The notes: generated by a model not told the origin, from the sequence alone. Shown: positions 1,243-38,432, counted from the first letter of the stretch. The stretch is DNA of 64,000 bases from an uncultured bacterium (GCA_963729625.1 CAVSOU010000010.1:1056001-1120000); one strand, 5' to 3'. Made by a program: numbers and translations.

Positions 1243-2373
1243 ATGCGGATTAACAAGGCGCTCAGGCCTATCGCGGCCCCCTTGCAGGCCGGATCGGCAC
1301 ACACCGGCGACACCGTATCGGCCGCGGCTGCACGGCATTCTGCCGGACACGGCGGCCCCACCCGGACCAGACGTGAAGTGTTCGAGCGAATCGCGCCGGG
1401 TCTTGCGCTGTGTGCGGGTCTTGCCGGCATCGCAACCGGCCTTGGACACCTGGCGCCTGTGGTCGGGGCAGCCGTGATCGCCATTCTGCTCGGCATCGTG
1501 CTACGTAACACGCTTGACGTACCGGCACGGTGCGCGCCCGGCGTTCGAGTCTCAAGCAAGCTGGTGTTGCAGGTGGCCATCGCGGTGCTCGGTAGCAGCT
1601 TGAGCTTGCACCAGGTGTGGGCGACCGGCACCGGCTCACTCGCCGTACTGCTTGGCACGTTGATAGTTGGGATCCCCGTGATTTTGCTGCTTGGGCGTCT
1701 CCTCGGCGTCGGCAAGACCCTGACCCGTCTCATCGGGGTCGGTACCGGCATCTGCGGCGCCTCGGCTATTGGAGCGCTGGCGCCGATCCTCGGGGCAGAG
1801 GAAGGAGCTATCGCCTATGCCATCGCCACCATCTTCCTCTTCAACGTGGCCGGAGTACTGCTCTTCCCGCCCCTGGGCCGGCTGTTTGGCTTCTCCGCGC
1901 ACGGGTTCGGCCTTTGGGCCGGTACCGCCATCAATGACACGTCATCGGTTGTGGCCGCGGGCTACAGCTTCAGCACCGGCGCCGGCTCCTATGCAGTCAT
2001 CGTCAAGCTAACGCGCACGCTGATGATTGTGCCCGTGAGCTTAGTCTTTGCCGCGGTGGCAGCGCGGGAGCGGCGATTGCATCCATCGGGCGACAGTTTG
2101 CTGGCCGAACGAGCTCGTATGCCGCGGTTCATCTTCTGGTTTCTGGTGGCAAGCGCACTCAATACAGCGGGCGTGTTTGGCGCCTGGGGACCGCATGTGT
2201 TACCTGCGCTCGGCCAATTTCTCATCGTGGTCGCCCTGGCCGGGGTGGGCCTCTCCGCTGATCTGCGGGCCATGGCCCGGACTGGCTTCCGGCCCATCCT
2301 GCTCGGGTTAGCAGGATGGATGTGCGTGGCCACGCTGAGCCTGATGTTCCAGCACATCGCCGGCGCGGTGTGA
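1243..2373 (+). CDS. YeiH/PSE family putative sulfate/sulfite exporter
   Basis: Multi-TM protein with GTGICGASAI, GLWAGTAINDTSSVVAA and VKLTRTL motifs typical of YeiH. The true start may be GTG 1378. Confidence 0.9.
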   Translation: MRINKALRPIAAPLQAGSAHTGDTVSAAAARHSAGHGGPTRTRREVFERIAPGLALCAGLAGIATGLGHLAPVVGAAVIAILLGIVLRNTLDVPARCAPGVRVSSKLVLQVAIAVLGSSLSLHQVWATGTGSLAVLLGTLIVGIPVILLLGRLLGVGKTLTRLIGVGTGICGASAIGALAPILGAEEGAIAYAIATIFLFNVAGVLLFPPLGRLFGFSAHGFGLWAGTAINDTSSVVAAGYSFSTGAGSYAVIVKLTRTLMIVPVSLVFAAVAARERRLHPSGDSLLAERARMPRFIFWFLVASALNTAGVFGAWGPHVLPALGQFLIVVALAGVGLSADLRAMARTGFRPILLGLAGWMCVATLSLMFQHIAGAV

Positions 2374-2615
2374 CGCATTCATGGGGCCGCCGTTCATGAG
2401 GCAACAAGCTACGCAGCGGAATTGGCAAAGGCCCTGGACACGGCGCTGGGAGCCGGCATTACAGTCAGAGCATCGGCCCACCTTACCATCGGCGGCACGT
2501 CGAAGCAAAGCACTTCGCATCGGCGGGTCGTCGCAGCGCAGCTTCGCCTTGGCAACAGCGCCAGAGCCATGGCCAGCAAATCGCGCACGACGGGGCTATC
2601 CAGCCTTGCGTCTGG

Positions 2616-2840
2616 CTACGTCGACGGCTTCGCCAGCAGTGCAGCGACTTTATCATTCTGGTTTGGGAACAGGTCGACCGGCACCGCTGCCTTGCCGTTG
2701 GCCGTACAGACTATATAGCGCGCACAGCCCATGAAGTTCCCTCTGCAGTACCGATTTCGCAGCATGTCGGACAGGGCGGGCATGTTCGCCATTCTGCCGC
2801 CAAAGAACAGGCAACCAGAGATCTTATCGCAATCAGCCAT
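2616..2840 (-). CDS. small Cys-rich hypothetical protein (74 aa)
   Basis: ATG 2840 with strong GGAGGGAGG RBS; pattern C-x5-C-LFF...YC-x6-CARY...VPVDLFPN. Confidence 0.75.
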   Translation of the reverse strand: MADCDKISGCLFFGGRMANMPALSDMLRNRYCRGNFMGCARYIVCTANGKAAVPVDLFPNQNDKVAALLAKPST

Positions 2841-2942
2841 CGAATCCTCCCTCCTAACGAAGAGATCATAATCTCGACGATATGGTTGCGATAGGACCCG
2901 TTTGGGCCATGGATCCGCGATAGTCACGTTGTAATGTCCGGA

Positions 2943-3209
2943 TTAGAGCTCCGTCAACATGCTGATGCTGTTGCCGATCACTCGCCGCGCTTCCGCCGGA
3001 GGCAACGCCAAGCACTCGTCGAGCCCCGTTGCCACGATGGCTGCAGCCACTTTCTCAAGTGCGGCGCGCGCGGCCATCACCTGCACGAGAATTTGATCGC
3101 ACGGCCGATGATCGCCGACCATCTTGGCGATACCGCGCACCTGTCCCTCGATTCGCGCGAGGCGGTCCTGGACCGCCTGCGCGGCATCCGTGTCCAACTG
3201 TGTATCCAC
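2943..3209 (-). CDS. CsoR/RcnR/CstR family metal- or persulfide-sensing repressor
   Basis: RLARIEGQVRGIAKMV..RPCDQILVQVMAARAAL..LDECL signature; two Cys, but no His at the CsoR Cu-ligand position. Confidence 0.9.
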   Translation of the reverse strand: MDTQLDTDAAQAVQDRLARIEGQVRGIAKMVGDHRPCDQILVQVMAARAALEKVAAAIVATGLDECLALPPAEARRVIGNSISMLTEL

Positions 3210-3243
3210 GGGCGTTCCTCTCGCTCTTTACCAACACTATATC

Positions 3244-3259
3244 CCATACCCCCGTATGG
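3244..3259. promoter_or_regulatory. CsoR/CstR-type operator 1
   Basis: Perfect inverted repeat CCATAC-CCCC-GTATGG with a central C-tract, 35 bp upstream of the repressor start. Confidence 0.75.
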
Positions 3260-3431
3260 TCTCAAGCACCGATCGGCACCTGCATGCAAGGCAATAGGTT
3301 TATCTCTCGCGCTTCAGCATCAGTTGCTTCGGCCCTTCGAGCAGCAAGATCGCTCCGGACAGGCTGGTATGGGGATGACGCGGAACGGGATGGCGGAAGG
3401 GCCGCATGCCCCACATGGTCATGGCATTCGG

Positions 3432-3447
3432 CCCTACCGGGGTATGG
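3432..3447. promoter_or_regulatory. CsoR/CstR-type operator 2
   Basis: CCCTAC-CGGG-GTATGG has the same TAC-N4(G/C)-GTA geometry and lies upstream of tusA. Confidence 0.6.
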
Positions 3448-3534
3448 TAGCCATGCGCGATAATCGGTGCGTCAATCTCGCGCAAGGCCTGTCATTCCGC
3501 TTGCGGTGCAGCACGAAACGAAAGAAGGACGAAG

Positions 3535-3789
3535 ATGGCAACGGACCTCCTGCAAGGCATTCGAGTCGACAAAGTGGTGGACGCCCGCGGCACCTCGTGC
3601 CCTGGCCCGATCTTGGCCGCGAAGAAGGGCATGGCGGACGTGGCGATCGGCGGCGTCATGGAAGTGCTGGCCACCGACCGTGGCACGCAGAAGGATCTGC
3701 CTGCCTGGGCCAAGAAGATGGGCCATGAGTTTCTCGGTGTAGTGGAGGACGCCGGAACCTGGAAGCTCTACGTCAAGAAGCTGAAGTAG
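3535..3789 (+). CDS. tusA: TusA family sulfur carrier protein
   Basis: VDARGTSCPGP (CPxP motif), EVLATD and DLPAW motifs; 84 aa. Confidence 0.92.
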   Translation: MATDLLQGIRVDKVVDARGTSCPGPILAAKKGMADVAIGGVMEVLATDRGTQKDLPAWAKKMGHEFLGVVEDAGTWKLYVKKLK

Positions 3790-4212
3790 ATGGCTGCTCC
3801 GGCAACCGCGGCGACCGCGCCAACGATATTGGTATTCTCCACGAACAACATCTCGGACCCCGGCATCGATCTGGCCGGCAGCGCGCACCTGCACTACTCG
3901 CCGAACGTCATGGTGATCAGCCTGCCGTGCACGAGCGGGATCAAGCCAAGCTGGATCCTGCACGCCATGCAGCAGGGCTGCGACGGCGTATTCATCGCCG
4001 CGGACGGAGACGAATGCGCGTATCTTCCCGACTGCTCGACGCGTGCCTCGCGTATCGTGACCGAGGCTCAGGCGTTGCTCAGGGAGCATGGGTACGAGGC
4101 GCGGCGCGTCCGCATGGGCGCCATCTGCTCGGTCTGCGCCGATCCGTTTGCTGCCTATATGCGCGAGTTCTCAGAGTCATTGGCAGAACTAGTGCCTTCC
4201 GGGAAGGAATAG
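3790..4212 (+). CDS. mvhD: MvhD/FlpD-like iron-sulfur subunit with an atypical Cys pattern
   Basis: PTILVF..IDLAG..HLHYSPNVMVISLPCTSGIKPSWILHAMQQGCDGVFI..EARRVRM; directly precedes the hdrA-like genes. Confidence 0.8.
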   Translation: MAAPATAATAPTILVFSTNNISDPGIDLAGSAHLHYSPNVMVISLPCTSGIKPSWILHAMQQGCDGVFIAADGDECAYLPDCSTRASRIVTEAQALLREHGYEARRVRMGAICSVCADPFAAYMREFSESLAELVPSGKE

Positions 4213-4215
4213 CCC

Positions 4216-6912
4216 ATGGACTATGACGCCCTGGTGGTCGGAGCCGGGATCGGCGGCATGGAATCGGCACTGAAGCTCGGCGACATGGGCTACAGCGTGT
4301 TGCTGATCGAGAAGGAAGCCAGCGTGGGCGGCAAGATGATCCTGCTCAGCAAGGTCTTCCCTACGCTGGACTGCGCCAGCTGCATTTCCACGCCGAAGAT
4401 GGGCGCCGCCATCCATCACCCCAACATAACAGTGCTCACTCACTCCGAAGTGGATCAGATCCGGCGAGATGATAGCGGCCACTTTCGAGCAAAGATCCGC
4501 CGGAAGCCAAGCTTCGTAGATGAGGCTTTGTGCACGGGCTGCCGCGACTGCGAGATGGCCTGCAGCGTATCAGCGCCCGACCAGTTCAACGCCGGTATGG
4601 TGTCGCGCCGCGCAGCCTACATCGCATTCCCGCAGGCGGTACCGAAGAAAGCGGTGATCGAACGAGCAGGCACCTCACCCTGCACCTTTGAATGTCCTGC
4701 CGGCATCAAGGCGCACGGCTACGTCTCCCTGGTGCGCAGCGGCGAATACGAGAAGGCCTTCGCCCTCGTGCTCGAAGCCACTCCCCTGGTCGGAAGCTTG
4801 GGCCGTGCCTGCTACGCGCCCTGCGAGAGCGCCTGCAGCCGGTCAAGACTTGAAGGACCACTCGCTATCCGGCGCTTGAAGCGCTTCATCGCCGACACGC
4901 ATTACTGCGGGCGCGCGGAAACTTTGGTGTCAGCGCCGCCGCCGAATGGCAAGCGGGTAGCGGTCGTCGGCTCCGGCCCCGCTGGCCTGACTGCGGCCTG
5001 GCAATTGGCGCGGCAAGGCCACGGCGTGAAGATCTTTGAAGCCGCGCCGGAGCCCGGCGGCATGTTGCGCCTGGCCATCCCCGACTACCGGTTGCCGAGC
5101 ACGGTCGTCGAGCAGGATATCGCGAATGTGACCGCCATCGGTGTGGAGATCGCCACGAATACGCGCGTGGAGAATCTGGAGGATCTCAAAACCCAGGGTT
5201 ACGACGCCATCCTGCTGGCGACCGGCACACCTCGCGCCGTCGGCTTGCAGGCTCCCGGCGGCGATCTGCCGGGCATCACCAGCGCCCTCGCCTTCCTTCG
5301 TGCCGTCAAGCTCGGCGAACCCATGGATTATCACGGCAAGACCGTGACCGTGATCGGCGGCGGCAACGTAGCTATCGACGCCGCGCGCAGCGCCCGCAGA
5401 CTGGGCGCGGCGGCTGTGCACATGGTCAGCTTGGAATCGCGGCCGGAAATGCCCGCGCACACATTCGAGGTTGAGGAGGCGCTGGCGGAAGGCATCGTCC
5501 TGCACAACTCCTGGGGCGTCCGGCAGTTCCGCGGCGAGAACGCGGTGGAAGGCCTCGAGCTGCGCCGCTGCACGACCGTATTCGACGCCGATCGACGCTT
5601 CAACCCTCAGTATGACGAGAGCACATTCCGGGATCTCCCCAGCGATGTGGTGATCCTGGCTGTAGGCATGAGCGCGGATACGATTGCCTTCGCCTCGTCG
5701 CTTGGGATTAACCGGAACAAGACGCTTCAGGCAGATCCAGGCACCTTGCAGACAACTTTGCCCTACGTCTTTGCGGCCGGCGACGTGGTGTCCGGTCCGT
5801 CGATGATTACCAGTGCGGTCGGCCAAGGCCGGCGTGCTGCCTTTATGATCGACCGCTGGCTGCAGGGCCGAGAGCTGGACGTCAAGGCCTTCGAGACGAT
5901 GCTGCCCGTCGTGGAGCAGATTGACGTGCTGCGGCGGCAAGTCCATTTCGCGCGTCGCGAGCCGCTCCCCGGGGTTGCGGTTGAAGGCGCACCGTCCGAC
6001 ATGGCGGAGCTGGAACCTCCGCTCACCGAGGAGGAAGCGCGCTACAGCGCCGGACGCTGTCTGGACTGCGGCATCTGCTCGGAGTGCCATCAGTGCCTGG
6101 ATGCCTGCCCCGCGGGCGCCATCGACCTGAACATGCCTGAACGCGAGTTCGAGGCCGAGGTGGGCACGGTGGTGCTCGCCACCGGGTTCAGTCTCTTCCC
6201 GGCTGACCTCAAGCCACAGTACGGCTTCGGAAGATTCAAGAACGTGATCACCGGCATGCAGATGGACCGCCTGCTGGCACCCACCCGCCCCTACAACTCC
6301 GTGCTGCGGCCGGGTGACGGCAAGGTGCCCGATCGCATCGGCTTCATCATGTGCACCGGCTCGCGCGACAAGACGGTGGGCAACCCCCTCTGTTCCAAAA
6401 TATGTTGCATGTATTCGATCAAGCAGAATCAGCTGATTATGGGCGCCCTGCCGCTGGCGGACGTCACCGTGCACTACATCGACATGCGCGCGGTGGGGAA
6501 TGGGTACGACGAGTTCTACGAGCAGGCCCGTGCCATGGGCGCCAACTTCATCAAGGGGCGGGTAGCCGGGATCACGGAGAAGGAAGATGGCAACCTGATC
6601 CTGCGCTACGAGGACGTCGACAATGGCGGCGTCCTGGCAGAGGCCGAATACGACCTCGTCGTACTGGCGGTGGGCGTGCAGCCGAATCTGGATATTCGCC
6701 GGCTCTTCCCGGGCTCGGATCTGGCCCCGGACGAGTTCGGGTATGTCGACGAACCCGACGAGGATCTCAATCCCGGCTGGACGGGGACGCCGGGCCTCTA
6801 TGTGGCCGGCGCCGCGTCAGGCGCAAAGGATATCCCGGATTCCATTTTGCATGCGGGGGCGGCCGTAGCGCAAGCGGCGGCGCATCTGGAAAGGGCGAGG
6901 GTGCGCGCATGA
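4216..6912 (+). CDS. HdrL-type heterodisulfide reductase A-like flavoprotein with an inserted GltD-like NAD(P)H-binding module
   Basis: HdrA N-part (LVVGAGIGG, KVFPTLDCASC), ferredoxin motif, GltD-like insert (SPCTFECPAG, GRACYAPCESAC, VVGSGPAG, VIGGGNVA), then HdrA C-part (CTGSR..CSKICCMYSIKQ, KDIPDS). Confidence 0.88.
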   Translation: MDYDALVVGAGIGGMESALKLGDMGYSVLLIEKEASVGGKMILLSKVFPTLDCASCISTPKMGAAIHHPNITVLTHSEVDQIRRDDSGHFRAKIRRKPSFVDEALCTGCRDCEMACSVSAPDQFNAGMVSRRAAYIAFPQAVPKKAVIERAGTSPCTFECPAGIKAHGYVSLVRSGEYEKAFALVLEATPLVGSLGRACYAPCESACSRSRLEGPLAIRRLKRFIADTHYCGRAETLVSAPPPNGKRVAVVGSGPAGLTAAWQLARQGHGVKIFEAAPEPGGMLRLAIPDYRLPSTVVEQDIANVTAIGVEIATNTRVENLEDLKTQGYDAILLATGTPRAVGLQAPGGDLPGITSALAFLRAVKLGEPMDYHGKTVTVIGGGNVAIDAARSARRLGAAAVHMVSLESRPEMPAHTFEVEEALAEGIVLHNSWGVRQFRGENAVEGLELRRCTTVFDADRRFNPQYDESTFRDLPSDVVILAVGMSADTIAFASSLGINRNKTLQADPGTLQTTLPYVFAAGDVVSGPSMITSAVGQGRRAAFMIDRWLQGRELDVKAFETMLPVVEQIDVLRRQVHFARREPLPGVAVEGAPSDMAELEPPLTEEEARYSAGRCLDCGICSECHQCLDACPAGAIDLNMPEREFEAEVGTVVLATGFSLFPADLKPQYGFGRFKNVITGMQMDRLLAPTRPYNSVLRPGDGKVPDRIGFIMCTGSRDKTVGNPLCSKICCMYSIKQNQLIMGALPLADVTVHYIDMRAVGNGYDEFYEQARAMGANFIKGRVAGITEKEDGNLILRYEDVDNGGVLAEAEYDLVVLAVGVQPNLDIRRLFPGSDLAPDEFGYVDEPDEDLNPGWTGTPGLYVAGAASGAKDIPDSILHAGAAVAQAAAHLERARVRA

Positions 6913-8648
6913 GCGGCAAGAGGATAGGCGTCTACGTCTGTCACTGCGGCGGTAACATCTCCGATTACGTGGACACTGATCAGGTAGTGGCCGAAGCCCT
7001 GGCGGAGGAGGACGTGGTGATTGCCAGGTCCGCCATGTTCACGTGCTCGGACGCCACCCAGCAGGAGATTGTCAACGACATCCAGGAGCACCAGCTCGAC
7101 GGCCTGGTCGTGGCTTCCTGCTCGCCCAAGCTGCACACCTTCACCTTTCGCGAAGTCGCCAGACGTGCCGGTCTGAATCCCTTCCAGTACACCCAGGTGA
7201 ATATCCGCGAGCAGTGCTCGTGGGCGCACACGGACGACAAGGATGGGGCTACCTGCAAGGCGGGCTGCCTGGTGCGGGCAGGGATCGGCCGCACGCGGTT
7301 ATCGGAGCCATTGGAGCCGCTCGTGGTGCAAACGGAAGGGAGCGTCCTGGTGGTCGGTGGCGGCGTCGCTGGACTGCGCGCGGCCATTGGTCTGGCCGAG
7401 ATCGGGCTCTCGGTGGTCCTGGTGGAAAAGGAGCCCCGGCTTGGCGGCTGGGTCGGCGCTTTCGGCGACATGTATCCGCATGGCAAGAACGGCAGAGCCC
7501 TGATCGAGCATCTCGTGGCGGAGATTCGCAAGCGGCCGGAGATCACTATCTTCACCAATGCCGAGGTGGTGAATAAGTCGGGCACGCTGGGCAACTACAA
7601 CGCAACCATCGACGTACACGGAGAGTCGCCGGCATCGATTGAGGTGCAGGTGGGCGCGATTGTCGTCGCTACCGGCTTCGACGCCTACACGCCTGAAGCA
7701 GGCGAATACGGCTACGGCATCGATGGCGTGGTCACGCTGCCCGAGTTTAAGAAGCTGACCGACCAGTCGCAAGGCCCATTGATGCGTCACGGCAAGCCGA
7801 TTAAGTCCATCGTCTACATCTACTGCGTCGGTAGCCGGCAGGGCTCGAACGGCAGCCCGGGTAACCCTGGCTGCTCGCGCTACTGCTGCACTGCCGCCGT
7901 GCATGCCTCGCTGACCGTGGCGGCCAAGGACATCAACGCGCGCCAGTACCACCTGTACCGCGATATGCGCACCTACGGCAGGTACGAGACACTCTACAGC
8001 GAGTCGCGCGAGAATGGATCGCTCTATCTTAAGTTTGCCGACGACACGCCGCCGACGGTAAGTCGGGACAGCAGTACCGGCAGGCTCACCGTAACGGTAA
8101 GAGATCTCCTGACCGGTGGTGAAGAGATCGCCATTCCGGCAGAGCTTGTGGTCCTGGTCACCGGCATGATGCCGCGCCCCGTCGAGGAACTCGTCGATGT
8201 GCTCAAGCTTCCGCTGGGCAAAGACGGCTTCTTCCATGAGATTCACCCCAAGCTACGGCCGGTCGAGACCGTGGTTGACGGCGTCTTAATCTGCGGCACC
8301 TGTCAAGGACCCAAGAACGCGGCTGAAAGCGTGGCCTCCGCACTGGCCGCGGTGACCCAAAGCGCGGCAATGCTGAAGAAAGGGTATGCCGAGCTGGATC
8401 CACAGGTCGCGCGCGTCAATGCCGAGGTTTGTATCTGGTGCGGCAAATGTCAGGAGGCCTGCCCGTATGGCGCGGTAGGCCTGCTCCATCTCGACGGCAG
8501 AGATAGTGCCGTGGTCGACGCTGCCGGCTGCAAGGGCTGCGGCGGCTGCGTGCCTGTCTGCCCGAACGATGCCATCGACCTCCTGGGTTACAGCGATGCC
8601 CAGGTCAGGGCCATGATCGATGGACTGCTGAAGGAGCGCGTGTCATGA
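6909..8648 (+). CDS. hdrA: heterodisulfide reductase subunit A-like protein
   Basis: ATG 6909 (ATGA overlap). IGVYVCHCGGNI, VVASCSPKLH, NIREQCSWAH, CVGSR..CSRYCC, HPKLRPVET and C-terminal 2x[4Fe-4S] motifs. Confidence 0.9.
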   Translation: MSGKRIGVYVCHCGGNISDYVDTDQVVAEALAEEDVVIARSAMFTCSDATQQEIVNDIQEHQLDGLVVASCSPKLHTFTFREVARRAGLNPFQYTQVNIREQCSWAHTDDKDGATCKAGCLVRAGIGRTRLSEPLEPLVVQTEGSVLVVGGGVAGLRAAIGLAEIGLSVVLVEKEPRLGGWVGAFGDMYPHGKNGRALIEHLVAEIRKRPEITIFTNAEVVNKSGTLGNYNATIDVHGESPASIEVQVGAIVVATGFDAYTPEAGEYGYGIDGVVTLPEFKKLTDQSQGPLMRHGKPIKSIVYIYCVGSRQGSNGSPGNPGCSRYCCTAAVHASLTVAAKDINARQYHLYRDMRTYGRYETLYSESRENGSLYLKFADDTPPTVSRDSSTGRLTVTVRDLLTGGEEIAIPAELVVLVTGMMPRPVEELVDVLKLPLGKDGFFHEIHPKLRPVETVVDGVLICGTCQGPKNAAESVASALAAVTQSAAMLKKGYAELDPQVARVNAEVCIWCGKCQEACPYGAVGLLHLDGRDSAVVDAAGCKGCGGCVPVCPNDAIDLLGYSDAQVRAMIDGLLKERVS

Positions 8649-8893
8649 GCACGACGAGCCGGGATGTGCGCGAAATCATCCGCGAGGAGCCCCTGATGCG
8701 GGACCGCATCCTGCAGGTGCTGGAAGCGGGGCCGAAGACCGTGCCGGAGATCGCGGCGGCGATCGGCTACCCGGACCACGAGGTCATGTATTGGGTGATG
8801 GGGATGCGCAAGTACGGCCAGGTGACTCCGCTCCCCGACGCCACCGACGAGGGGTTCTACCAATACCAGGCGGTGGAGGGGAACCGGATATGA
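8645..8893 (+). CDS. small winged-helix protein within the hdr-like operon
   Basis: ILQVLEAGPKTVPEIAAAIG..MRKYGQV wHTH pattern; ATGA overlaps at both ends. Confidence 0.75.
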   Translation: MSTTSRDVREIIREEPLMRDRILQVLEAGPKTVPEIAAAIGYPDHEVMYWVMGMRKYGQVTPLPDATDEGFYQYQAVEGNRI

Positions 8894-9195
8894 CCACGCT
8901 GCTGAACCCCGACCTGGCGCGGCAGATCTGGCCGGGCGATGAGCTGAATGCCGATGCCTGCATGAACTGCGGCGTGTGCGGCGCCGTCTGCCCGATGGGC
9001 ATCGCACTGCTGCCCAGAAGGCTGTTCCGGTACGTGCTTCTGGGCATGGAGGACCGCGTGCTGCAGGAGACGGAGAATGTGTTCTCGTGTCTGTTGTGCA
9101 GACTGTGCGAGGTCAATTGCCCGGCGGACGTCCATATCGCGGAGAACATGCGTGCCGTGCGCCACTATATCAACACGCACGCTGTCAGAAGCTAG
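8890..9195 (+). CDS. HdrC-like 2x[4Fe-4S] protein
   Basis: ATG 8890; CMNCGVCGAVCP and CLLCRLCEVNCP motifs. Confidence 0.85.
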   Translation: MTTLLNPDLARQIWPGDELNADACMNCGVCGAVCPMGIALLPRRLFRYVLLGMEDRVLQETENVFSCLLCRLCEVNCPADVHIAENMRAVRHYINTHAVRS

Positions 9196-9205
9196 GAGAG
9201 TGCCA

Positions 9206-10174
9206 ATGCCACTACCGCCGGGCGACATCATAGGCATCCTGTCGGATAACCTGCGTCTGCGTAGGTCGGTGCTGCCGATCTCTACCCGGAGCGTCACGCG
9301 GTGGGCGCGTGGGCTGAACCTGCCACGCGGCGGAGAGACCGTTCTCTATACCGGGCAGATGTACCAGCTTATCCCCTACATCGAGCAGATGGTGCAGATG
9401 CAGGAGCGGGTGGCAGATACATGGCTGGCTGGCTTCACCCGGCTGGGCCGGCGCCTGAATAAAGTGGTCAACATCACGGCGTTCATGGGCCGCCCAGGCG
9501 CGGATGCGCGGGCGGCCAACGACGGCGTCTTGCACAACGTGGTTTCGCTGCTCCGGCAAGCGGGAGTCGCCTTCGGCTATCTCTTCGAGGACGACCTCTA
9601 TTCCGGGGCACTTGCCTACGACCTGGGCACCGACGAAGCTTTTGGCATGCAGGCGCGACGAGTGGCTCGCATGCTCAAGAAGCATGGCGTGCGAAACGTG
9701 ATCACAGTCGACCCGCACACGACCAATATGCTTCGCTCCGTCTATCCGAGGTTCGTCAAAGGATTCGACGTGAGCGTGCGCAGCTACCTGGAAGTGCTGG
9801 CGGACAAGGGCATGCGGCCGCAGACATCGCTCTCCAGCCGGTTGGCGATTCACGATTCCTGTGTCTATGCCCGATACGAGGGTGTGATAGGGCAACCCCG
9901 CGCGCTGCTGGAGCAAGCCGGTGTCACCATCGTCGAGCCGGATAATGCCGGCCGCTTCACCTGGTGTTGCGGTGGCCCATTGGAGTCTCTGTACCCGCGT
10001 AAATCATTGGCCACCGCCCAGAAGCGCGTGGAACAGCTCCGTCAGGCCGCACCGGAGGCGGTGACGATGTGTCCCCTGTGCCTGGTGAATCTGCAAAAGG
10101 CGGCGGGCCACACACTGCGCCTCACAGACATCTCCGAGCACCTGCGACGGGCGTATACAGCTCAAGCCATCTGA
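9206..10174 (+). CDS. HdrB/HdrD-like CCG-domain Fe-S protein
   Basis: RBS AGGAG before ATG 9206; HDSC..WCCGG..TMCPLC C-terminal CCG domain; degenerate N-terminal domain (TVDPHT). Confidence 0.85.
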   Translation: MPLPPGDIIGILSDNLRLRRSVLPISTRSVTRWARGLNLPRGGETVLYTGQMYQLIPYIEQMVQMQERVADTWLAGFTRLGRRLNKVVNITAFMGRPGADARAANDGVLHNVVSLLRQAGVAFGYLFEDDLYSGALAYDLGTDEAFGMQARRVARMLKKHGVRNVITVDPHTTNMLRSVYPRFVKGFDVSVRSYLEVLADKGMRPQTSLSSRLAIHDSCVYARYEGVIGQPRALLEQAGVTIVEPDNAGRFTWCCGGPLESLYPRKSLATAQKRVEQLRQAAPEAVTMCPLCLVNLQKAAGHTLRLTDISEHLRRAYTAQAI

Positions 10175-10191
10175 AGTCGAAGGAGAAGAAG

Positions 10192-10668
10192 GTGCGCACA
10201 GACAAGAAGACATTGATCGTCTTCAGCGGCGACCTCGACCGAGCGCTCGCGGCATTCATGATTGCCAACGGCGCCGCCGCTATGGGTGACGAAGTAACCA
10301 TGTTTTTCACCTTTTGGGGCCTGAATATCCTGCGCAAGGCCAAGAAGGTGAAGGCCAAAAAGACGTTCCTGCAGGCAATGTTCGGCTGGATGATGCCCCG
10401 CGGCCCCAGCCGGCTGGGCCTCTCCAAGATGAACTTCGGCGGCATGGGCGCCATGATGATGAAGAAGGTGATGAAGGGGCAGAACATCATGTCGCTCGAG
10501 GACCTGCTCGCTGCGGCGAAGGACCAGGGCGTCAAGCTGGTGGCCTGCACCATGTCGATGGATGTGATGGGCATCAAGGAAGAGGAGTTGATCGACGGCC
10601 TGGAGTTCGCCGGCGTGGCCAGCTACCTTGGCGAGGCGGACGAGGCCAACGTCAACCTGTTCATCTAG
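10192..10668 (+). CDS. DsrE2/DrsE-like sulfur transferase
   Basis: GTG 10192 after AAGGAG; IVFSGDLDRA, MFFTFWGLNILRK, LSKMNFGGMG and ACTMSMDVMGI motifs. Confidence 0.9.
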   Translation: MRTDKKTLIVFSGDLDRALAAFMIANGAAAMGDEVTMFFTFWGLNILRKAKKVKAKKTFLQAMFGWMMPRGPSRLGLSKMNFGGMGAMMMKKVMKGQNIMSLEDLLAAAKDQGVKLVACTMSMDVMGIKEEELIDGLEFAGVASYLGEADEANVNLFI

Positions 10669-10728
10669 TCGCGCAGCGCAAGCGTCGACGCCAGCATATT
10701 TGCGGCACGAGGGCAGGGAAGCACACAC

Positions 10729-11092
10729 CTACTTCATCGAGGTGTTCTCGTAGAAGCTCGCGCTGGGACAATGGCAGCCAATGGTCGGAAGCACAACCTC
10801 GTCGCCGGGACCTAACGTAGCAACCTGCCAGGTGCCGTCGACGAGTCGCGATCTGACTTCGACAGACACGCGGTCCGTGGCGATCAGCGCGTAGGTGCCC
10901 AGGCTCGTCAGGGCGCGATACATCCCGAACTTATCGCCCTGGTCGTAGTCGACCGTCTTGGGCGAGAGGGCCTCCACGACGACGCGGGGATGGCGGATAA
11001 ACTGGTGGGCTCCGCGAACACACGGCGGGGCGTTCAGCATGAAGAATGGCCTGCTCGACCGCGAGCTGTGGCCTTTGCCAAGGGTAGTGCAT
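10729..11092 (-). pseudogene. Uma2-family endonuclease remnant with an internal deletion and frame break
   Basis: C-half PRVVVEALSPKTVDYDQGDKFGMYRALTSLGTYALI is typical of Uma2. An N-terminal-like piece (MHYPWQRPQLAVEQAILHAE) lies in another frame, and the central part is missing. Confidence 0.65.
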
Positions 11093-11181
11093 GTTCGGTA
11101 GGCTGGATGACGTCAGCCTGAAGGAGGATAGCCGGACTGCTGTGAGCCTGCAGCATGAGCGTGGCGGGAGGAATTGCACAG

Positions 11182-11637
11182 ATGGACGATGCTGAGAAGA
11201 CGTGGCATACCAAGTGTGCCAAAGAACTTTTCAACCACTCTTGGGATCTCCTTGACCAGGCTAGCCGCACCGATCAGGAAGACCACGACCTTCTCCACGC
11301 CGCGTTCGCCTCGCGCTATCATTGGGGCGTCGTCGGCACCGAGGAGAACTGGATCCTTGGCGACGCGCACATCGCCCGTGTCGCCGCCCACCTGGGCCAC
11401 AGCGCGTTGTCCCTGCATTACGCAGCTCGGGCCCTCGACGACACGTACGCGCGTGGCTGGCGAGACTACCGTCTCGCATCGGCCCATGAGACGATGGCGC
11501 GGGCACACAGCGCCGCGGGGAACTCGGTCGAGCGTGACCGCCACCTTGCGCTTGCCCGCGATGCTCTCGATCTCGTCGACGACCCAGAGGATCGAGAGAT
11601 CATCGCCGGGCAGATTGACTCGGTCCCTGTGGGCTGA
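11182..11637 (+). CDS. conserved helical hypothetical protein
   Basis: GGAGG RBS, ATG 11182; AKELFNHSWDLL..HAAFASRYHW motif; coding-like composition. Confidence 0.75.
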   Translation: MDDAEKTWHTKCAKELFNHSWDLLDQASRTDQEDHDLLHAAFASRYHWGVVGTEENWILGDAHIARVAAHLGHSALSLHYAARALDDTYARGWRDYRLASAHETMARAHSAAGNSVERDRHLALARDALDLVDDPEDREIIAGQIDSVPVG

Positions 11638-11739
11638 ACCGCAGCGAGACCTTCCGGGCAATGGACACGCATGCGAGAGCGCCAGCGTGCTTCGGAGGCC
11701 CGAGCGGGCCGCTGCCCGACTACCTCTTCCATCCGCTGT

Positions 11740-12399
11740 TTAGCTGGAGCAGCTTCCGTCGCCACGGCTCCGGCCGCCGCGTCCCGACTTGGCGCCGTCG
11801 AACGCCTCTCGTGCCTCGTGGGCCAACCAGTAGAGCAATGCCAGGGCGGCGACACTATCCGCCCACCACCAACCAAATGCGACATTTGCCACCAGCCCAA
11901 GCAGCAGGGTGCACGCCATATACGCACAGGTGATCGAGCAGGCTGCATCCCCGCGCAAGGCGGCGCTGTCGAGTAGGTCGGCAATCCGTCGCTTGCGCCG
12001 CGCCAAGATGGGCATGCCGATGACCGCGGCGATGGCAACCGCTATCCCGGCGAAAGAGCGACCGGGCTCGGTGTGCGTAACCAGTGCCGCTACTGCGCTG
12101 ATCGCGACGTAAATGCAGAGTAAAGCCAACGCCACTCCCGTGATCCAGGCGGAGCGGTGCTCCGCGCGTTCGACCTCTTGCAAGAGGCCGCCGCGCGCCT
12201 CGGTCCGCAGGCGCCAGAGCAGCACCCCGCCAGATGCCAGTTCGATCACGCTGTCGACGCCAAAGGCGGTGAGCAGCACGCTGCGGGCAAGTAGCCCTGC
12301 GCCGATGGCGACGGCGGCCTCCACCACCATCCAGGCAATGGCGACCTGTTCCACACGTACACCCGAGCGTGCCGCACTCGCACGTCTACGCTCGTCCAA
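11740..12399 (-). CDS. cation efflux (CDF-like) membrane transporter
   Basis: About 6 TM helices; LTAFGVDSVIE, SAALRGDA and GWWWADSVAAL motifs. Start uncertain. Confidence 0.8.
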   Translation of the reverse strand: MDERRRASAARSGVRVEQVAIAWMVVEAAVAIGAGLLARSVLLTAFGVDSVIELASGGVLLWRLRTEARGGLLQEVERAEHRSAWITGVALALLCIYVAISAVAALVTHTEPGRSFAGIAVAIAAVIGMPILARRKRRIADLLDSAALRGDAACSITCAYMACTLLLGLVANVAFGWWWADSVAALALLYWLAHEAREAFDGAKSGRGGRSRGDGSCSS

Positions 12400-12489
12400 A
12401 TCAGGCGGCGTGACAACGTCGGGGGTAGCCGTTGTTGTGATTTCCTCCCCAGTGAGTGCTTGCTCGGCGCGCGCGGCAGCCCAGTGACC

Positions 12490-13467
12490 TCAAGCTGCTT
12501 CAGGCTGGCCGATTCCCACGAGCAGACCGTTATCGGCTATGGCCGGGCTGGTAGTTACAAAGAGCACGACGCCGGCTACCGGGCTCGCAATTGTAGCGAT
12601 CGGCTCTCCCCACAGGTCGACCATGTCGCCAAGTGAATCTCCGGCGCTGAGCCGGTCACCCGCCCGAATAGCCTTGCGGAAGAAGCCGCCTCGCTCGGCG
12701 CGCACCCATGCGAAACCTCGGACGAGCGTCTGCGGCGTGGATAGCTGCTCCGGCTCACCCTCGAGCATGTCCAGCCGCTGCAGCACGCGCCGCAACCCGC
12801 GCAAGTGGAGCGCCACGGCTTCCTGCGTAAGCTGGCCTATACCGCCGGCCTCCGCGATCACGGCCGGTATGCCGACTTCAGCCGCGGCAATGTCGGTGCT
12901 GCCCGATACGGCTCCGCCTGCCGGCGGTTCCACGATGACATAGGGCAGGCCGAACGTGGTGGCCAGATCCAGTGCCTTGTCGTCGACTTCAGGCCGACCG
13001 CATTGATGCATCAAGCTAAACGGCATCAGCTCTTCTACCAGATCGCCGCAGTGCAGGTCGATGAAGTAATCGCCCTGGCGAATGACCGAGTGGAAGAAAT
13101 GATAGGCAAGTACGTCCGAAAAACTGCCGTCTGGATTTCCTGGAAAGGCACGGTTTGGGTTCTTGCCGTCGCGCGGGCAAACGAAAGGTGTGCGTTGCCA
13201 GAAAGCTGGAAGGTTGACAACAGGTACGCCGACGATCCTTCCGCGAACCTTTCCCGGATCGGCCTGGCGACAGAAGCGCATCAGCGCATCAATCGGCGGG
13301 TATTCGGCACCGTGTATTCCGGCGATCACACACAGCGTGGGACCGTCCTGCGCTCCCGCAATCGCGAAGTACGGCCATTCGTAGTCGGCGAGCATCGGGG
13401 CGTCGAAGGCGAGCAGGCGGCGTTCGGTGTGGCCGGGCGCCGGGAAGACGATTGACCTATCCGTCAT
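12490..13467 (-). CDS. succinylglutamate desuccinylase/aspartoacylase family (M14) hydrolase
   Basis: AGIHGAEY, NPNRAFPG, IDLHCG, EAGG and a C-terminal biotinyl-like domain; ATG 13467 overlaps the upstream stop. Confidence 0.88.
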   Translation of the reverse strand: MTDRSIVFPAPGHTERRLLAFDAPMLADYEWPYFAIAGAQDGPTLCVIAGIHGAEYPPIDALMRFCRQADPGKVRGRIVGVPVVNLPAFWQRTPFVCPRDGKNPNRAFPGNPDGSFSDVLAYHFFHSVIRQGDYFIDLHCGDLVEELMPFSLMHQCGRPEVDDKALDLATTFGLPYVIVEPPAGGAVSGSTDIAAAEVGIPAVIAEAGGIGQLTQEAVALHLRGLRRVLQRLDMLEGEPEQLSTPQTLVRGFAWVRAERGGFFRKAIRAGDRLSAGDSLGDMVDLWGEPIATIASPVAGVVLFVTTSPAIADNGLLVGIGQPEAA

Positions 13468-14477
13468 GCTGAGCTCCCATCTTGAGAGTATAGGTGACAG
13501 GCAACTGACCGGCCGTGCGAGACGCGCCGCTGCGCCGGGTACTCTTCCTTGCAAACCGGCATCACATGCGGGCAACGAGGATGAAAATGACAACCGCTCG
13601 GTCGATTGACCGGACTGGGCAGATCACCTTCCAGCGAGGGTGTGGTCGCCTTCTGCCGTGGAACAAGCTTGGGCACTGCTCGGAGCAGCGCCTGTGCGTA
13701 GGGGTGCAGTGGCTCGCGAAACAGCTCGTCCGTCGGCGCCAGCTCCACGATCTTGCCCAGGTACATGACCGCGACACGCTGGCTAATATGGTGCACCACG
13801 CCAAGGTTGTGCGCGATGAACAGATAGGTCAGGCCAAGCTCGTCCTGCAGGCGCATCAGCAGGTTCAGGACCTGCGCCTGGACGGAGACGTCGAGCGCGG
13901 AAACGGCTTCATCGGCAACGATGAAGTCCGGGCCAACCGCGAGTGCCCGCGCTATTCCGACCCGTTGCCGCTGCCCGCCGCTGAACTGGTGCGGCTTGCG
14001 CTCAGCCATCTCGCGCGAGAGTCCGACCATCTCCATCAGGGCGCCCACTCGCTCCGTCCGCTCCGCGGGTGGACAGACCTTATGGACCTTCAGCACTTCC
14101 TCGAGCATCTGGCGAACCTTCATGCTGGGGTTGAGTGACGAGTAGGGATCCTGGAAGACTACCTGGATCTTGGTGCGCAGCTCACGCGTGGCACGAGCAT
14201 CATGGGAAATGATATTGACGCCATTGTGAAAGATCTCCCCCCGCGTGGGCTCATAGAGCCGCAGCAGCAGCCGTCCAAACGTGCTCTTGCCGCAGCCGCT
14301 CTCGCCTACCAGCCCAACGGTCTCGCCGCGGTTGATAGTGAGGGAGACGTCGTCTACGGCCTTTAGCGTCGGGCGCGGCATCCTGCGCAGCCGTCGCACC
14401 AGGCTCTCGGCCAACACGAACTCCTTGGAGACGCCGCGAGCCTCAAGCAGGGGGTTAGTGGCCGCGATGTCAGTCAC
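13464..14477 (-). CDS. oligopeptide/dipeptide ABC transporter ATP-binding protein (OppF/DppF type)
   Basis: GESGCGKS, FSGGQRQR, DEAVSALD, HPY and GCHFHPRCP motifs. Confidence 0.93.
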   Translation of the reverse strand: MTDIAATNPLLEARGVSKEFVLAESLVRRLRRMPRPTLKAVDDVSLTINRGETVGLVGESGCGKSTFGRLLLRLYEPTRGEIFHNGVNIISHDARATRELRTKIQVVFQDPYSSLNPSMKVRQMLEEVLKVHKVCPPAERTERVGALMEMVGLSREMAERKPHQFSGGQRQRVGIARALAVGPDFIVADEAVSALDVSVQAQVLNLLMRLQDELGLTYLFIAHNLGVVHHISQRVAVMYLGKIVELAPTDELFREPLHPYAQALLRAVPKLVPRQKATTPSLEGDLPSPVNRPSGCHFHPRCPHVMPVCKEEYPAQRRVSHGRSVACHLYSQDGSSA

Positions 14478-15499
14478 TCGGTTCCTCCACCTCTTGGTGC
14501 CGGCGGCAGCGTGACACGTGTTGTCCTCCTACACTCAGCAGCTCGGTCTTCCATGTACGGCACGCTTCCTCCTGAAGGGGACAGCGATCGAAGAACCGGC
14601 AACCCGCCGGCGGATCCACCAGGTCCGGCGGCGCGCCCGAGATCGGGGTCAGATACCGCGATCTCGTCTCTCTGATCCGGCAACGAACGGAGCAAGCCGA
14701 CGGTATAGGGATGTTTCGGTCGGGTTAAGAGCGTCACCGTATCGGCCATCTCGACGATTTGCCCGGCGTACATCACCGCCACGCGCGTGCAGGTCCCCGC
14801 GATTACGCCCAGGTCGTGGCTGACGAGGATCATGCTCATGCCGAGCTCGCGTTGAAGCCCGAGCAGCAGGCTAAGGATCTGGTCCTGAATCGTCACATCG
14901 AGCGCAGTGGTAGGCTCGTCCGCCAGCAGAATCCGCGGCTTGGAAGCCAGGGCGATCGCGATGAGCACTCGCTGCCGCATCCCGCCGCTGAACTGATGGG
15001 GGTAGTCGTCGACGCGCTGCTCGGCCATCGGTATGCGAACGTGACCAAGCAGCTCCACGACAGCACGGTGCCGCTCAGGGCGACGCAGGGAAGTATGGGC
15101 TTGCAGCGCTTCCTCGATCTGGGCTCCCACGCTCATCACGGGATTGAGCGAGCTCATGGGATCCTGGAAAATCATGGAGATTTGCGCTCCGCGCACCTTC
15201 TGCATGGCCGACTTGGAGAGCTTAACGAGATTCCGGCCTGCATACTGTACGGTTCCGACCGTAGACGCGGGTGGGATCGGCAGCAAGCCAATCAATGAGC
15301 GACACGTTACGCTCTTCCCGCAGCCACTTTCCCCGACGATACCGAACGTCTCACCAGGATAAAGGTCGAACGTGACGCCGTCGACAGCACGCAAGACCCC
15401 GCGTGGCGTCGCGAAGTAGGTGTACAGATCGCGCACGCTGAGGAGCGGCTCGCCTGCCGAATGCTGCACCTGGATATCCGTATCCACCGCAATCGACAT
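14470..15499 (-). CDS. oligopeptide/dipeptide ABC ATP-binding protein (OppD/DppD type), frameshifted near 14670
   Basis: GESGCGKS, FSGGMRQR, DEPTTALD and HPY are in frame 0. The conserved tail ISGAPPDLVDPPAGCRFFDRCP..C..H..C lies in another frame after an AGAGAGA run. Confidence 0.88.
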
Positions 15500-15518
15500 A
15501 TCTGCGTTCCTTACGTTC

Positions 15519-16403
15519 TCACTGCGCGGGCCGGAGCACGTCCGCAAGGCCGTCACCCAGTAAGCTAAGCGACACTCCGACCGCGACGATGGCGAGGCCG
15601 GGAATTGTCGGCACCCACCACGCCGTCACCATGTAGTTCTGTCCGTCGGCGATCATGGTTCCCCATTCGGGGCTCGGCTCCGGCACGCCTAAACCCAGAT
15701 ACCCAAGAGCGGCACCGAGCAAAATGTTACCCACCGCATCGGCCATGGCGAAGATCAGGGCTGCCGAAAACACGTTCGGCAGGATATGTCTCAGCATGAT
15801 GCGCATGTTGCCGAAGCCGAGCGCGCGAGCCGCCAGCACATACTCCTGTTGCTTTGCGACCAGCGTCTCTCCCCGAATAATCCGCGCGTAGGAGACCCAG
15901 CCGACCGCCCAGATGGCAATGAAGAGATTCAGCAGGCCCGCACCGAGTGCGGCGACGATCGCCAGTACCAGCACAAAGAACGGGAAGGCAAAAAACACGT
16001 CAACGATTCGCATCAGAACTGCATCCAGCTTACCGCCGAAATACCCCGAGATCAGGCCTATGATCGTGCCGACGATAATGGTGACGCCCGTCCCGCCAAA
16101 TCCGATGAGCAGGTCGACGCGGCCGCCGTACAGGAGCCTGCTCAGTATGTCACGCCCGTACGGCGCATCCGTTCCCAGTGGGTGTCCAGGCGAGAACGGC
16201 GCTGCACCCTGATTCAAGATATCCTGAGCGACTGGGTCATACTGCGTGAACAGTGGCGCGCCCAGGCAGGCAATGACGATAAGGACAAGCAGCACGGCAC
16301 CGGCCAACAATGGCCAGTTTCGTATACGGCGCCGTTTGCGTCCTGCTTTCTTTTCGAGGCGCAGGGCGAGCAGTGTGCCGGGATTGGTTGCCTCGACGGC
16401 CAT
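15519..16403 (-). CDS. peptide ABC transporter permease (OppC/DppC type)
   Basis: HPLGTD..GRDILSRLLYGGR, EYVLAARALG and PEWG motifs. Confidence 0.93.
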   Translation of the reverse strand: MAVEATNPGTLLALRLEKKAGRKRRRIRNWPLLAGAVLLVLIVIACLGAPLFTQYDPVAQDILNQGAAPFSPGHPLGTDAPYGRDILSRLLYGGRVDLLIGFGGTGVTIIVGTIIGLISGYFGGKLDAVLMRIVDVFFAFPFFVLVLAIVAALGAGLLNLFIAIWAVGWVSYARIIRGETLVAKQQEYVLAARALGFGNMRIMLRHILPNVFSAALIFAMADAVGNILLGAALGYLGLGVPEPSPEWGTMIADGQNYMVTAWWVPTIPGLAIVAVGVSLSLLGDGLADVLRPAQ

Positions 16404-16417
16404 ACGCTCCTCCTGCC

Positions 16418-18462: not shown

Positions 18463-18572
18463 ACATGTCTAGGTTCGTGGCGCCTTCGACGCTGCAGGCA
18501 TGCCGGCACAGCCACGACGAAGGCGCCACACAGGGCCGCTGCCTCCGACCGACCTGTCAGAGGCAATCACGG

Positions 18573-33237: not shown

Positions 33238-33339
33238 ACAGGCTCTTCCTTCATGCGAGAGACGCGTGCTTGGGCCCTATCTGGAGGACCGCGGCAGCAG
33301 GCGGATACCCGCCTGCCGCCACATCACGGCGCCGGCCGG

Positions 33340-38431: not shown

Positions 38432-38432
38432 G

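Follow-up and report, generated by a model that had tools for sequence, protein, structure and literature searches.

The stretch of DNA analysed in this study, referred to below as the window, is a 64,000-nucleotide segment from an uncultured bacterium (GCA_963729625.1 CAVSOU010000010.1:1056001-1120000), and our subject is an operon near its start, in which the subunits of a heterodisulfide reductase (Hdr)-like electron-transfer complex are encoded together with two proteins of sulfur-carrier families. Based on the listing of open reading frames (ORFs) and on the Pfam and NCBIfam scans, eight genes lie on the plus strand between positions 3535 and 10668 in the order tusA-mvhD-hdrL-hdrA-wHTH-hdrC-hdrB-dsrE2, where wHTH denotes a small winged-helix protein. 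Reading of the gene junctions showed ATGA overlaps between hdrL and hdrA, between hdrA and the wHTH gene, and between the wHTH gene and hdrC, and the other gaps are 0 nt (tusA/mvhD), 3 nt (mvhD/hdrL), 10 nt (hdrC/hdrB) and 17 nt (hdrB/dsrE). The initial annotation of the stretch had described a tightly coupled eight-gene Hdr operon with these domains, which the family scans and the junctions bear out.

Subunits and carriers encoded by the operon

The product of hdrL (4216-6912, 898 residues) consists of HdrA-type halves on either side of a GltD/NfnB-like module for flavin adenine dinucleotide (FAD) and NAD(P)H with Fe-S motifs, and its NAD(P)-binding insert covers approximately residues 150-650 in the Pfam and NCBIfam matches. 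In the comparison with PDB chains, residues 154-627 matched the NfnB/GltD-like chains 9bov, 9n5u and 4ylf, residues 616-895 matched the HdrA of 8rvu with 350 bits, and 21 Cys columns were found conserved in the alignment of relatives. The built-in NAD(P)H module that had been claimed for the operon is thus present as a complete NfnB/GltD-like module, which is the likely entry point of NAD(P)H electrons.

The 579-residue product of hdrA (6909-8648) is, judged from its sequence, clearly of the methanogen type and not of the type found in the sulfur-oxidising Hdr-like system (sHdr), with 400 bits to methanogen HdrA (5odc_A) versus 110 bits to sHdrA (6tjr_A), and its N-terminal 4-Cys, FAD and C-terminal two-cluster ferredoxin domains carry conserved Cys residues. 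It has no stretch matching the inserted ferredoxin domain of HdrA, the NCBIfam match skipping approximately model positions 231-321, and HdrL holds its NAD(P)H module at the position of this domain. We take the inserted ferredoxin domain to be the ferredoxin-side exit in the 5ODC structure. In low-GC Bacteroidales-type loci (L056, 3419-5389) HdrA was observed to be longer (656 residues), with an extra Cys-rich stretch at the position in question that the window HdrA does not have.

Two smaller electron-transfer subunits accompany these flavoproteins. The MvhD/FlpD-like [2Fe-2S] subunit (3790-4212; PF02662, 105 bits) keeps Cys47, Cys76 and Cys82 in all 72 aligned relatives and Cys113 and Cys116 in 71 of the 72, and the HdrC-like ferredoxin (8890-9195, start ATG 8890) has eight Cys in two 4-Cys motifs that are kept in 81/81. 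The latter is short, at 101 residues versus 144-198 for the NCBIfam HdrC models, and scores 46 bits with TIGR03290 against a cut-off of 160.

The HdrB-like catalytic subunit (9206-10174, start ATG 9206, 322 residues) gave one PF02754 match, corresponding to a single CCG domain. The five Cys of this C-terminal motif (Cys219, Cys254, Cys255, Cys289 and Cys292) are kept in 81/81, while no Cys is conserved in the N-terminal half and 67 of the 81 proteins have none within their first 200 residues. The single CCG set therefore implies one noncubane-type cluster site, versus two in methanogen HdrB. DsrK likewise has a one-cluster CCG site, which has been proposed to act on a protein trisulfide. Despite the single motif, the structure model (predicted local distance difference test, pLDDT, 86.6) has the two-lobed HdrB fold, and the best Foldseek matches were EtfD of M. 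smegmatis (9ojn, template modelling score, TM, 0.67), LutA (9a6l, TM 0.71 on the target) and methanogen HdrB (5odc_B, TM 0.53/0.58). Type II sHdrB3 also binds only one noncubane cluster, according to the available excerpts of the sHdr literature (PMC11094781).

Of the two carrier proteins, TusA (3535-3789) has its Cys22 in a Cys-Pro-Gly-Pro motif, kept in 69/69, and matches PF01206 with 82 bits versus a cut-off of 28.6, but it falls below the equivalog cut-off for E. coli TusA in NCBIfam (48.7 versus 78). Its closest structure is 1pav (Thermoplasma Ta1170), and weak matches of 28 bits to the selenium-linked YedF models of NCBIfam were also seen. The DsrE2-like protein (10192-10668, 158 residues) has GTG 10192 as its start codon, preceded by the ribosome-binding site GAAGGAG, and matches PF13686 with 226 bits, above the cut-off, and the NCBIfam DsrE2 model with 96 bits, below the cut-off of 210; its Cys119 is kept in 52/52 and its closest structure is 3pnx (121 bits).

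The eighth gene (8645-8893) encodes a small acidic winged-helix protein of 82 residues. Its model (pLDDT 89) resembles only generic SmtB, MarR and Z-alpha folds in Foldseek, Pfam gives only generic HTH families, the 25 listed not including DsrD, and in the ESM Atlas its relatives fall in unnamed or 'regulator' clusters. The family has no conserved Cys, the window protein having none at all, and its homologues are net negative in 39 of 54 cases (median isoelectric point 5.4), unlike the mostly basic ArsR- and CsoR-type regulators found in these loci. The best-conserved stretch, EVMxWVMGMRRYG, is hydrophobic and lies inside the would-be recognition helix. Because the family is acidic, this helix stretch is hydrophobic, and the start and stop of the gene overlap both neighbours, we propose that the protein may be a structural subunit and not a regulator. 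DsrD is a small winged-helix activator of DsrAB, and a likeness to it would be only an analogy. A complex prediction with HdrA residues 136-579, HdrC and HdrB as alignments and the wHTH protein as partner gave a score of 0.00 against a mark of 0.32, from which nothing follows on binding. Fusions to a neighbouring subunit were also sought; the two matches to longer proteins appear to stem from frameshifted or chimeric gene models and are therefore no evidence of fusion.

Conservation, distribution and regulators

Relatives of HdrB numbered 1,971 clusters at E <= 1e-10 among 7,772 candidates, and among the 120 matches listed they are 60-100% identical and 268-339 residues long. A scan of one genome per species gave 203 pattern matches, 171 of which encode an HdrB relative, and the best 80 were kept as loci. 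To determine gene order, profiles built from tblastn-derived alignments were searched against the six frames of these loci, with counts limited to the 65 of the 80 that have at least 6.3 kb upstream of hdrB, and to the 56 with both flanks long enough in the case of dsrE adjacency. The results showed tusA-mvhD-hdrL-hdrA-hdrC-hdrB on one strand and in the same order in 63/65 loci, and since the order recurs in this way in other species, the arrangement is far beyond chance. The wHTH gene is detectable between hdrA and hdrC in 61/65. The exceptions to the core order are L043 and L064; the wHTH gene was not detectable in L057 and L068, and their relative L056 has a divergent 81-residue ORF in its place.

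The synteny search suggested in the initial annotation thus found tusA retained in the core order, and the loss of tusA from beside the hdr genes, named there as a refutation, was not observed as a general pattern. The further claim that TusA and DsrE2 bracket the Hdr set holds only in part: tusA leads the hdr genes in the 63 loci, but dsrE adjoins the operon in 46/56, lying upstream only in 23, downstream only in 20 and on both sides in 3, and is not adjacent in the other 10.

The bacterial loci come from Bacillota, Actinomycetota, Chloroflexota, Zixibacteria, Ignavibacteriota, Bacteroidota, Nitrospirota, Verrucomicrobiota, Planctomycetota and Pseudomonadota, and the archaeal loci from Thermoplasmata. 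Cultured carriers within the Bacillota are, besides Desulfallas, the non-pathogenic Desulfotruncus alcoholivorax, D. arcticus, Desulfoscipio geothermicus, Desulfofundulus thermobenzoicus and Desulfotomaculum copahuensis. Across the operon-carrying phyla, HdrB is 46-67% identical to that of the window. In an HdrB tree from a quick maximum-likelihood search, the window falls in an eight-row clade (Shimodaira-Hasegawa-like approximate likelihood-ratio test, SH-aLRT, 99) with a Bacillota metagenome-assembled genome (MAG), Actinomycetota and a Limnocylindrales MAG, and the Thermoplasmata rows are nested among Chloroflexota rows. Full-length HdrB matches were found in only 3 of the 41 genomes around the window, its own included. 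In 81 genomes of the Thiobacillaceae family, that of one carrier, the wHTH profile found only the operon's own copy in one genome (E < 1e-30) and one weak match (E = 0.002). Sporadic occurrence among close kin and the nesting in the tree fit a module moving between lineages, and the operon is real, strongly conserved and horizontally spread.

Several loci depart from the common plan. The contig of a Limnocylindrales MAG (L035) carries two convergent operon copies, at 2498-9089 (plus strand) and 13438-19065 (minus strand), and a Thermoplasmata locus (L070) has a second, partial copy (tusA, hdrL and wHTH) downstream of the first. The exceptional locus L064, from a Nitrospirales MAG (8785-13293), encodes the same single-CCG type of HdrB in the order hdrL-hdrC-hdrB-hdrA-mvhD, with no tusA or wHTH gene detected in it, and may connect the operon with the HdrABC/HdrL loci of sulfate reducers. 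In a Chloroflexia genome (L042, 109-3156) the operon is preceded by three more genes, which encode a fusion of a ferredoxin with a two-CCG (HdrD/GlpC-like) protein, a redox protein of the C_GCAxxG_C_C type and a DUF134/NifX-like protein.

Regulator genes were counted by a greedy ORF call and clustering over 81 sources (the 80 loci and the first 21 kb of the window), a procedure which misses small genes, so that the counts are lower bounds. A divergent CsoR-family gene is found in at least 12 loci in addition to the window, an ArsR-family regulator in at least 16, mostly just upstream of tusA, and sigma-54 activators with a PAS domain in at least 12; in most of their loci these genes adjoin the operon. 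Both candidate sensor Cys are present in 8 of the 16 ArsR-type proteins, and the C-terminal one in 13. Members of these three families, namely CstR, BigR/SqrR/sHdrR and FisR, sense sulfane sulfur. For sHdr, the ArsR-type repressors sHdrR and SoxR are described as sulfane-sulfur-responsive in the available excerpts (10.1101/2025.02.17.638619; PMC11094781).

In the window, the divergent gene (2943-3209, minus strand; PF02583, 73 bits) encodes a CsoR-like protein whose Cys37 and Cys66 align with Cys of InrS (5fmn), CsoR (4m1p) and an 85-residue CsoR-family chain (7mq1), with Gly62 where InrS and CsoR have the metal-ligand His, and none of the NCBIfam metal-sensor models comes near its cut-off. 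The Cys/His pattern of the Bacillota-type CsoR relatives differs from that of the window. CsoR-type palindromes, ATACCC-N4-5-GGGTAT, were found 23 times in the 4,148 bp of 14 csoR-tusA spacers (in 12 of the 14), versus 7 times in the 289,948 bp that make up the rest of the same sources, and in 500 shuffles the mean count was 0.11 and the highest 2. With two Cys kept, the metal-ligand His of CsoR and InrS absent and CsoR-type operators enriched in the spacers, the divergent CstR-like repressor of the initial annotation is supported as a candidate. The perfect operator-like palindrome of the window, CCATAC-CCCC-GTATGG (3244-3259), overlaps the only sigma-70-like promoter match, which is on the minus strand (csoR). 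An imperfect second palindrome, TACC-GG-GGTA (3435-3444, 91 nt upstream of the tusA start), is a possible, weak candidate for an operator at the tusA promoter, and in several Bacillota loci one operator copy lies 54-70 nt upstream of the tusA start.

Around these genes lie others that do not belong to the conserved unit. The yeiH-family (UPF0324) membrane protein gene (1243-2373, plus strand; PF03601, 235 bits; TIGR00698, 124 bits, below the cut-off of 232.6) is present near the operon as had been remarked, but it is not conserved there, a relative being found in only 1/80 loci (L036), and its membership of the unit was rejected. A small Cys-rich ORF (2616-2840, minus strand), which follows directly downstream of the CsoR-like gene and has 74 residues from the ATG behind a strong ribosome-binding site, AGGAGGGAGG, matched no Pfam family up to E = 1. 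No conserved counterpart of it was found downstream of csoR in 11 Bacillota-type loci, nor any other conserved partner gene at that place. Directly after dsrE, a 103-residue ORF (10729-11040, minus strand) matches only positions 89-160 of the 172-position profile of Uma2, a putative restriction endonuclease, and is probably a truncated remnant that marks where the operon block stops. Elsewhere, the window contains peptide transporters, peptidases, copper-resistance genes and a [NiFe] hydrogenase operon. Among the copper-resistance genes, a 1,073-residue protein (30016-33774, minus strand) is an unusually large fusion of CopC, CopD and a YNCE-like beta-propeller, beside a separate CopC. The hydrogenase operon (36360-40491, plus strand, four genes), which holds the only [NiFe] hydrogenase genes in the window, lies 26 kb from the Hdr-like operon and best matches the beta, gamma, delta and alpha subunits of group 3b NAD(P)-dependent hydrogenase/sulfhydrogenase with 132-292 bits, none of these scores reaching the equivalog cut-off. 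It gives the window a second type of NAD(P)H-linked enzyme. Sulfur-reducing activity of group 3b sulfhydrogenase has been reported in archaea.

The host genome has a size of 5.4 Mb and 63% G+C, and is rated 87% complete with 5% contamination. It encodes one haem-copper oxidase, and outside the operon it also holds a second TusA-family gene and, besides the operon HdrB, three further CCG proteins. No match to DsrA or DsrC was found in the genome at this completeness, so that Dsr-type respiration is not what the enzyme serves in this host. Among public sequencing runs, three DNA runs of one study matched, the best with 0.34 of words, and no RNA run was listed.

Relation to known Hdr-like systems

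The locus had been said to match none of sHdr, Flx-Hdr and Mvh-Hdr, and our comparison agrees: there is one C/B pair, no gene for the lipoate-binding protein LbpA, Flx or MvhAG alongside, and an HdrA of the methanogen type. The sHdr system is defined by the syntenic genes shdrC1B1AHC2B2 (type I) or shdrC1B1AHB3 with etfAB (type II; -etfAB-emo), and it resembles the operon in that an Hdr-like Fe-S flavoprotein complex is encoded with TusA and DsrE-family carriers and that a small gene lies between hdrA and the next hdrC/B genes, as far as described in the available excerpts (PMC11094781). The operon is nevertheless not sHdr, because a second C/B pair or sHdrB3 with etfAB and LbpA are all missing and the HdrA is of the wrong type. 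No etfAB was found among 41 further window ORFs scanned with Pfam, and no GCV_H match (the family of LbpA) in the window ORFs so scanned. The operon also adds HdrL and MvhD and has a long methanogen-type HdrA in place of the short sHdrA, and its carrier is DsrE2-like, not DsrE3. The host's GcvH-family matches lie only on contigs C6 (12761-13111) and C11 (146669-147019), not on C10; they have identical scores, E-values and frame lengths, and look like an assembly duplication.

With the methanogen MvhAGD-HdrABC complex (5ODC, 8RVU) the operon shares the HdrA fold and cofactor motifs, MvhD, the ferredoxin motifs of HdrC and an HdrB-type fold with a CCG site. However, an NAD(P)H module takes the place of the hydrogenase, no MvhAG is adjacent, there is no coenzyme M/coenzyme B context, HdrB has one CCG set instead of two and HdrC is about half as long. 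The lack of MvhAG and the single CCG set set it apart from Mvh-Hdr, and the lack of flxABC from Flx-Hdr: between 1 and 14,500 no ORFs of flxA, flxB or flxC type were found, the only related gene being the MvhD/FlxD-like one. FlxABCD-HdrABC of Desulfovibrio vulgaris is similar as an NADH-linked Hdr with an MvhD-like FlxD, for which reduction of a protein disulfide was proposed in the text available (PMC4759654), whereas here the fused HdrL would do the job of FlxA/B/C and TusA/DsrE2 would stand in place of DsrC. The operon is not a Qmo system either, since it has no QmoC, the 101-residue HdrC-like protein scoring 30 bits with the qmoC model versus a cut-off of 300, and no Apr gene was found among the window ORFs scanned.

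The nearest relatives in print are the uncharacterised HdrABC/HdrL loci of sulfate reducers (Sfum_0819-0824 and Dred_1325-30), likened by description only. In the excerpts available, HdrL, HdrA, MvhD, HdrC and HdrB are likewise encoded together and soluble (PMC5947623, PMC4759654, PMC2702500). Sfum_0819-0824 of Syntrophobacter fumaroxidans was abundant only with sulfate (PMC5947623), Dred_1325-30 of Desulfotomaculum reducens was induced more than 20-fold on sulfate (PMC4759654), and locus VIII of Desulfobacterium autotrophicum is a third locus of this kind (PMC2702500). These loci differ from ours in having an FdhB/formate-dehydrogenase-like Fe-S gene, absent from the operon here; in that the available parts of their descriptions mention neither tusA nor dsrE nor a small wHTH gene; and in being tied to DsrC and detected mainly under sulfate reduction, whereas the host here gave no DsrA or DsrC match.

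Full-text searches of the open literature found no description of the eight-gene operon. Those texts that name HdrA, MvhD and TusA together concern other loci in the passages available, and the tusA/dsrE/hdrABC cluster of T. roseum is, on the same basis, a type II sHdr with etfAB and lbpA. The claim that the system is undescribed has to be qualified: its HdrL-HdrA-MvhD-HdrCB core is in print for sulfate reducers in the three papers above, although with neither TusA nor DsrE. The operon is a new variant within the Hdr-like complexes.

A different comparison is offered by sulfane-sulfur-responsive detoxification units, such as the cst operon under CstR in Staphylococcus aureus and the BigR/SqrR and FisR regulons. 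They too have a thiol-based CsoR-, ArsR- or sigma-54-type regulator beside sulfane-sulfur genes, including TusA- and DsrE-like carriers. Their chemistry is oxidative and needs O2 (sulfide:quinone reductase, persulfide dioxygenase, rhodanese), in contrast to the reductive Fe-S flavoenzyme proposed here.

Proposed reaction and competing explanations

We propose that the operon encodes an NAD(P)H-driven reductase of the sulfane sulfur borne by TusA and DsrE2, a proposal to which we give about an even chance. The enzyme would be a soluble multi-subunit Fe-S flavoenzyme, in which NAD(P)H electrons would enter HdrL through its GltD/NfnB-like module, HdrL pairing with the methanogen-type HdrA and the [2Fe-2S] protein MvhD. 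The short HdrC would then relay the electrons over its two cubane clusters to HdrB, whose one noncubane-type CCG site would reduce the carrier sulfur, in the form either of a persulfide carried by Cys22 of TusA or of a mixed di- or trisulfide that links TusA to Cys119 of DsrE2, with H2S and the free carriers as products and the small acidic wHTH protein as an additional subunit. Expression would be switched on by a build-up of sulfane sulfur, sensed by the CstR-like protein here and by ArsR-type or sigma-54 regulators in other lineages. The substrate, the direction of the electrons, the role of the wHTH protein and the inducer are the parts of this scheme that we infer.

The initial annotation had likewise suggested an NAD(P)H:protein-persulfide oxidoreductase, possibly electron-bifurcating. 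In favour of the proposal are the domain content and the tight coupling of the genes, the conserved tusA and the frequently adjacent dsrE with their invariant Cys, the single CCG set within an HdrB-like fold, the complete NfnB/GltD-like module of HdrL, the enrichment of CsoR-type operators, the Cys pattern of the window's regulator, the ArsR-type and sigma-54 regulators of other loci, and a host with a haem-copper oxidase but no DsrA or DsrC match. Several points weigh against this proposal. No biochemical, genetic or expression datum for any operon member was found in the open literature, and all NCBIfam equivalog models for the operon proteins score below their own cut-offs. In 10/56 loci dsrE does not adjoin the operon, and in the window the sole perfect operator lies at the csoR promoter, 289 nt from tusA, with just the imperfect copy near tusA. 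Sulfane-sulfur sensing is known only for other members of the regulator families and would be carried over to the present ones by analogy. The S0/H2S couple is close to NAD(P)H, hence the driving force would be small. In addition, plain transfer from NAD(P)H to a persulfide would hardly seem to call for seven subunits, among them MvhD and a pair of HdrA-type flavoproteins.

This last point favours an energy-conserving, flavin-based bifurcation or confurcation, in which NAD(P)H electrons would be split between ferredoxin and a recyclable, high-potential TusA-DsrE2 disulfide or trisulfide. TusA and DsrE2 would then take the part proposed for DsrC, and the purpose would be redox balancing or the supply of reduced ferredoxin, not the removal of sulfur. 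Two HdrA-type flavoproteins with MvhD are indeed the set-up of the bifurcating methanogen enzyme, many operon carriers are ferredoxin-dependent anaerobes, and for the related Dred_1325-30 and Sfum_0819-0824 a flow of NADH electrons to DsrC with bifurcation or confurcation was proposed in the excerpts available (PMC4759654, PMC5947623). We nevertheless regard it as unlikely, since the window HdrA is without the inserted-ferredoxin-domain stretch, the position of which is filled in HdrL by the NAD(P)H module, since a haem-copper oxidase but no DsrA/DsrC match was found in the host, and since the thiol-based repressors suggest that the operon responds to sulfur rather than to the redox state.

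It is quite improbable, in our judgement, that the HdrB site reduces a small-molecule disulfide or another oxidant, such as a low-molecular-weight thiol disulfide or a selenium compound, with TusA and DsrE as redox or delivery helpers. The operon occurs in phyla with different low-molecular-weight thiols, yet its HdrB keeps 46-67% identity to that of the window, the single Cys of each carrier is invariant, and persulfide-type regulators lie alongside, all of which speak against such chemistry. What can be said for it is that TusA weakly matches the YedF models, that the HdrB-fold proteins EtfD and LutA act on non-sulfur substrates, and that the substrate of every operon member is inferred.

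An oxidative, sHdr-like enzyme, in which the sulfane sulfur delivered by TusA and DsrE2 would be oxidised and the electrons passed to NAD(P)+, appears very improbable. Carriers of both families accompany the sulfur-oxidising sHdr, where a one-cluster sHdrB3 also exists according to the excerpts available (PMC11094781). But the window has no LbpA gene, the genome's GcvH-family matches being on other contigs, and there are one C/B pair, no etfAB and an HdrA not of the sHdrA type; in each of two other carrier genomes (G041 and G042) just one strong GcvH match was seen, and in a further one (G043) there was none. Moreover, reduction of NAD(P)+ by sulfane sulfur would be uphill unless a second reaction drove it. 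Least probable of all is a biosynthetic role, in which the enzyme would turn sulfide into a TusA persulfide that supplies thiolated cofactors or tRNA in anoxic habitats rich in sulfide, with no need of a cysteine desulfurase: E. coli TusA is a biosynthetic sulfur carrier by its NCBIfam family name and many carriers come from sediments and other anoxic sites, but the sporadic occurrence among close relatives (3/41 genomes; 1/81 for the wHTH marker) would be odd for a housekeeping route, and regulators of stress-sensor families alongside and the second TusA-family gene of the host also argue against it.

Hdr-type complexes are central to anaerobic energy metabolism, and to our knowledge substrates are known only for methanogen Hdr and, in part, for sHdr and Flx-Hdr. 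Here the likely substrate carriers are encoded within the gene cluster itself, so that the chemistry is directly testable, and the rigid conservation of the operon spans sulfate-reducing Bacillota, soil Actinomycetota and Thermoplasmata archaea. If carrier-bound sulfane sulfur is reduced by NAD(P)H as we propose, the enzyme would be an anaerobic counterpart of the O2-dependent persulfide detoxification units and would connect the pyridine-nucleotide pool with sulfur cycling in a new way, and it would show how an HdrB site works with a single noncubane-type cluster. A wider possibility, which we put forward only tentatively and consider somewhat unlikely, is that the operon represents a widespread, unrecognised cytoplasmic sulfur reductase, in which a protein-held persulfide or a TusA-DsrE2 polysulfide bridge would accept NAD(P)H electrons with bifurcation to ferredoxin. 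If true, this would provide a Dsr-independent means of disposing of electrons on zero-valent sulfur while conserving energy in fermenters, soil Actinomycetota and Chloroflexota, and Thermoplasmata, and would fill a gap in the cryptic sulfur cycle with an enzyme that gene transfer has carried from one domain to another.

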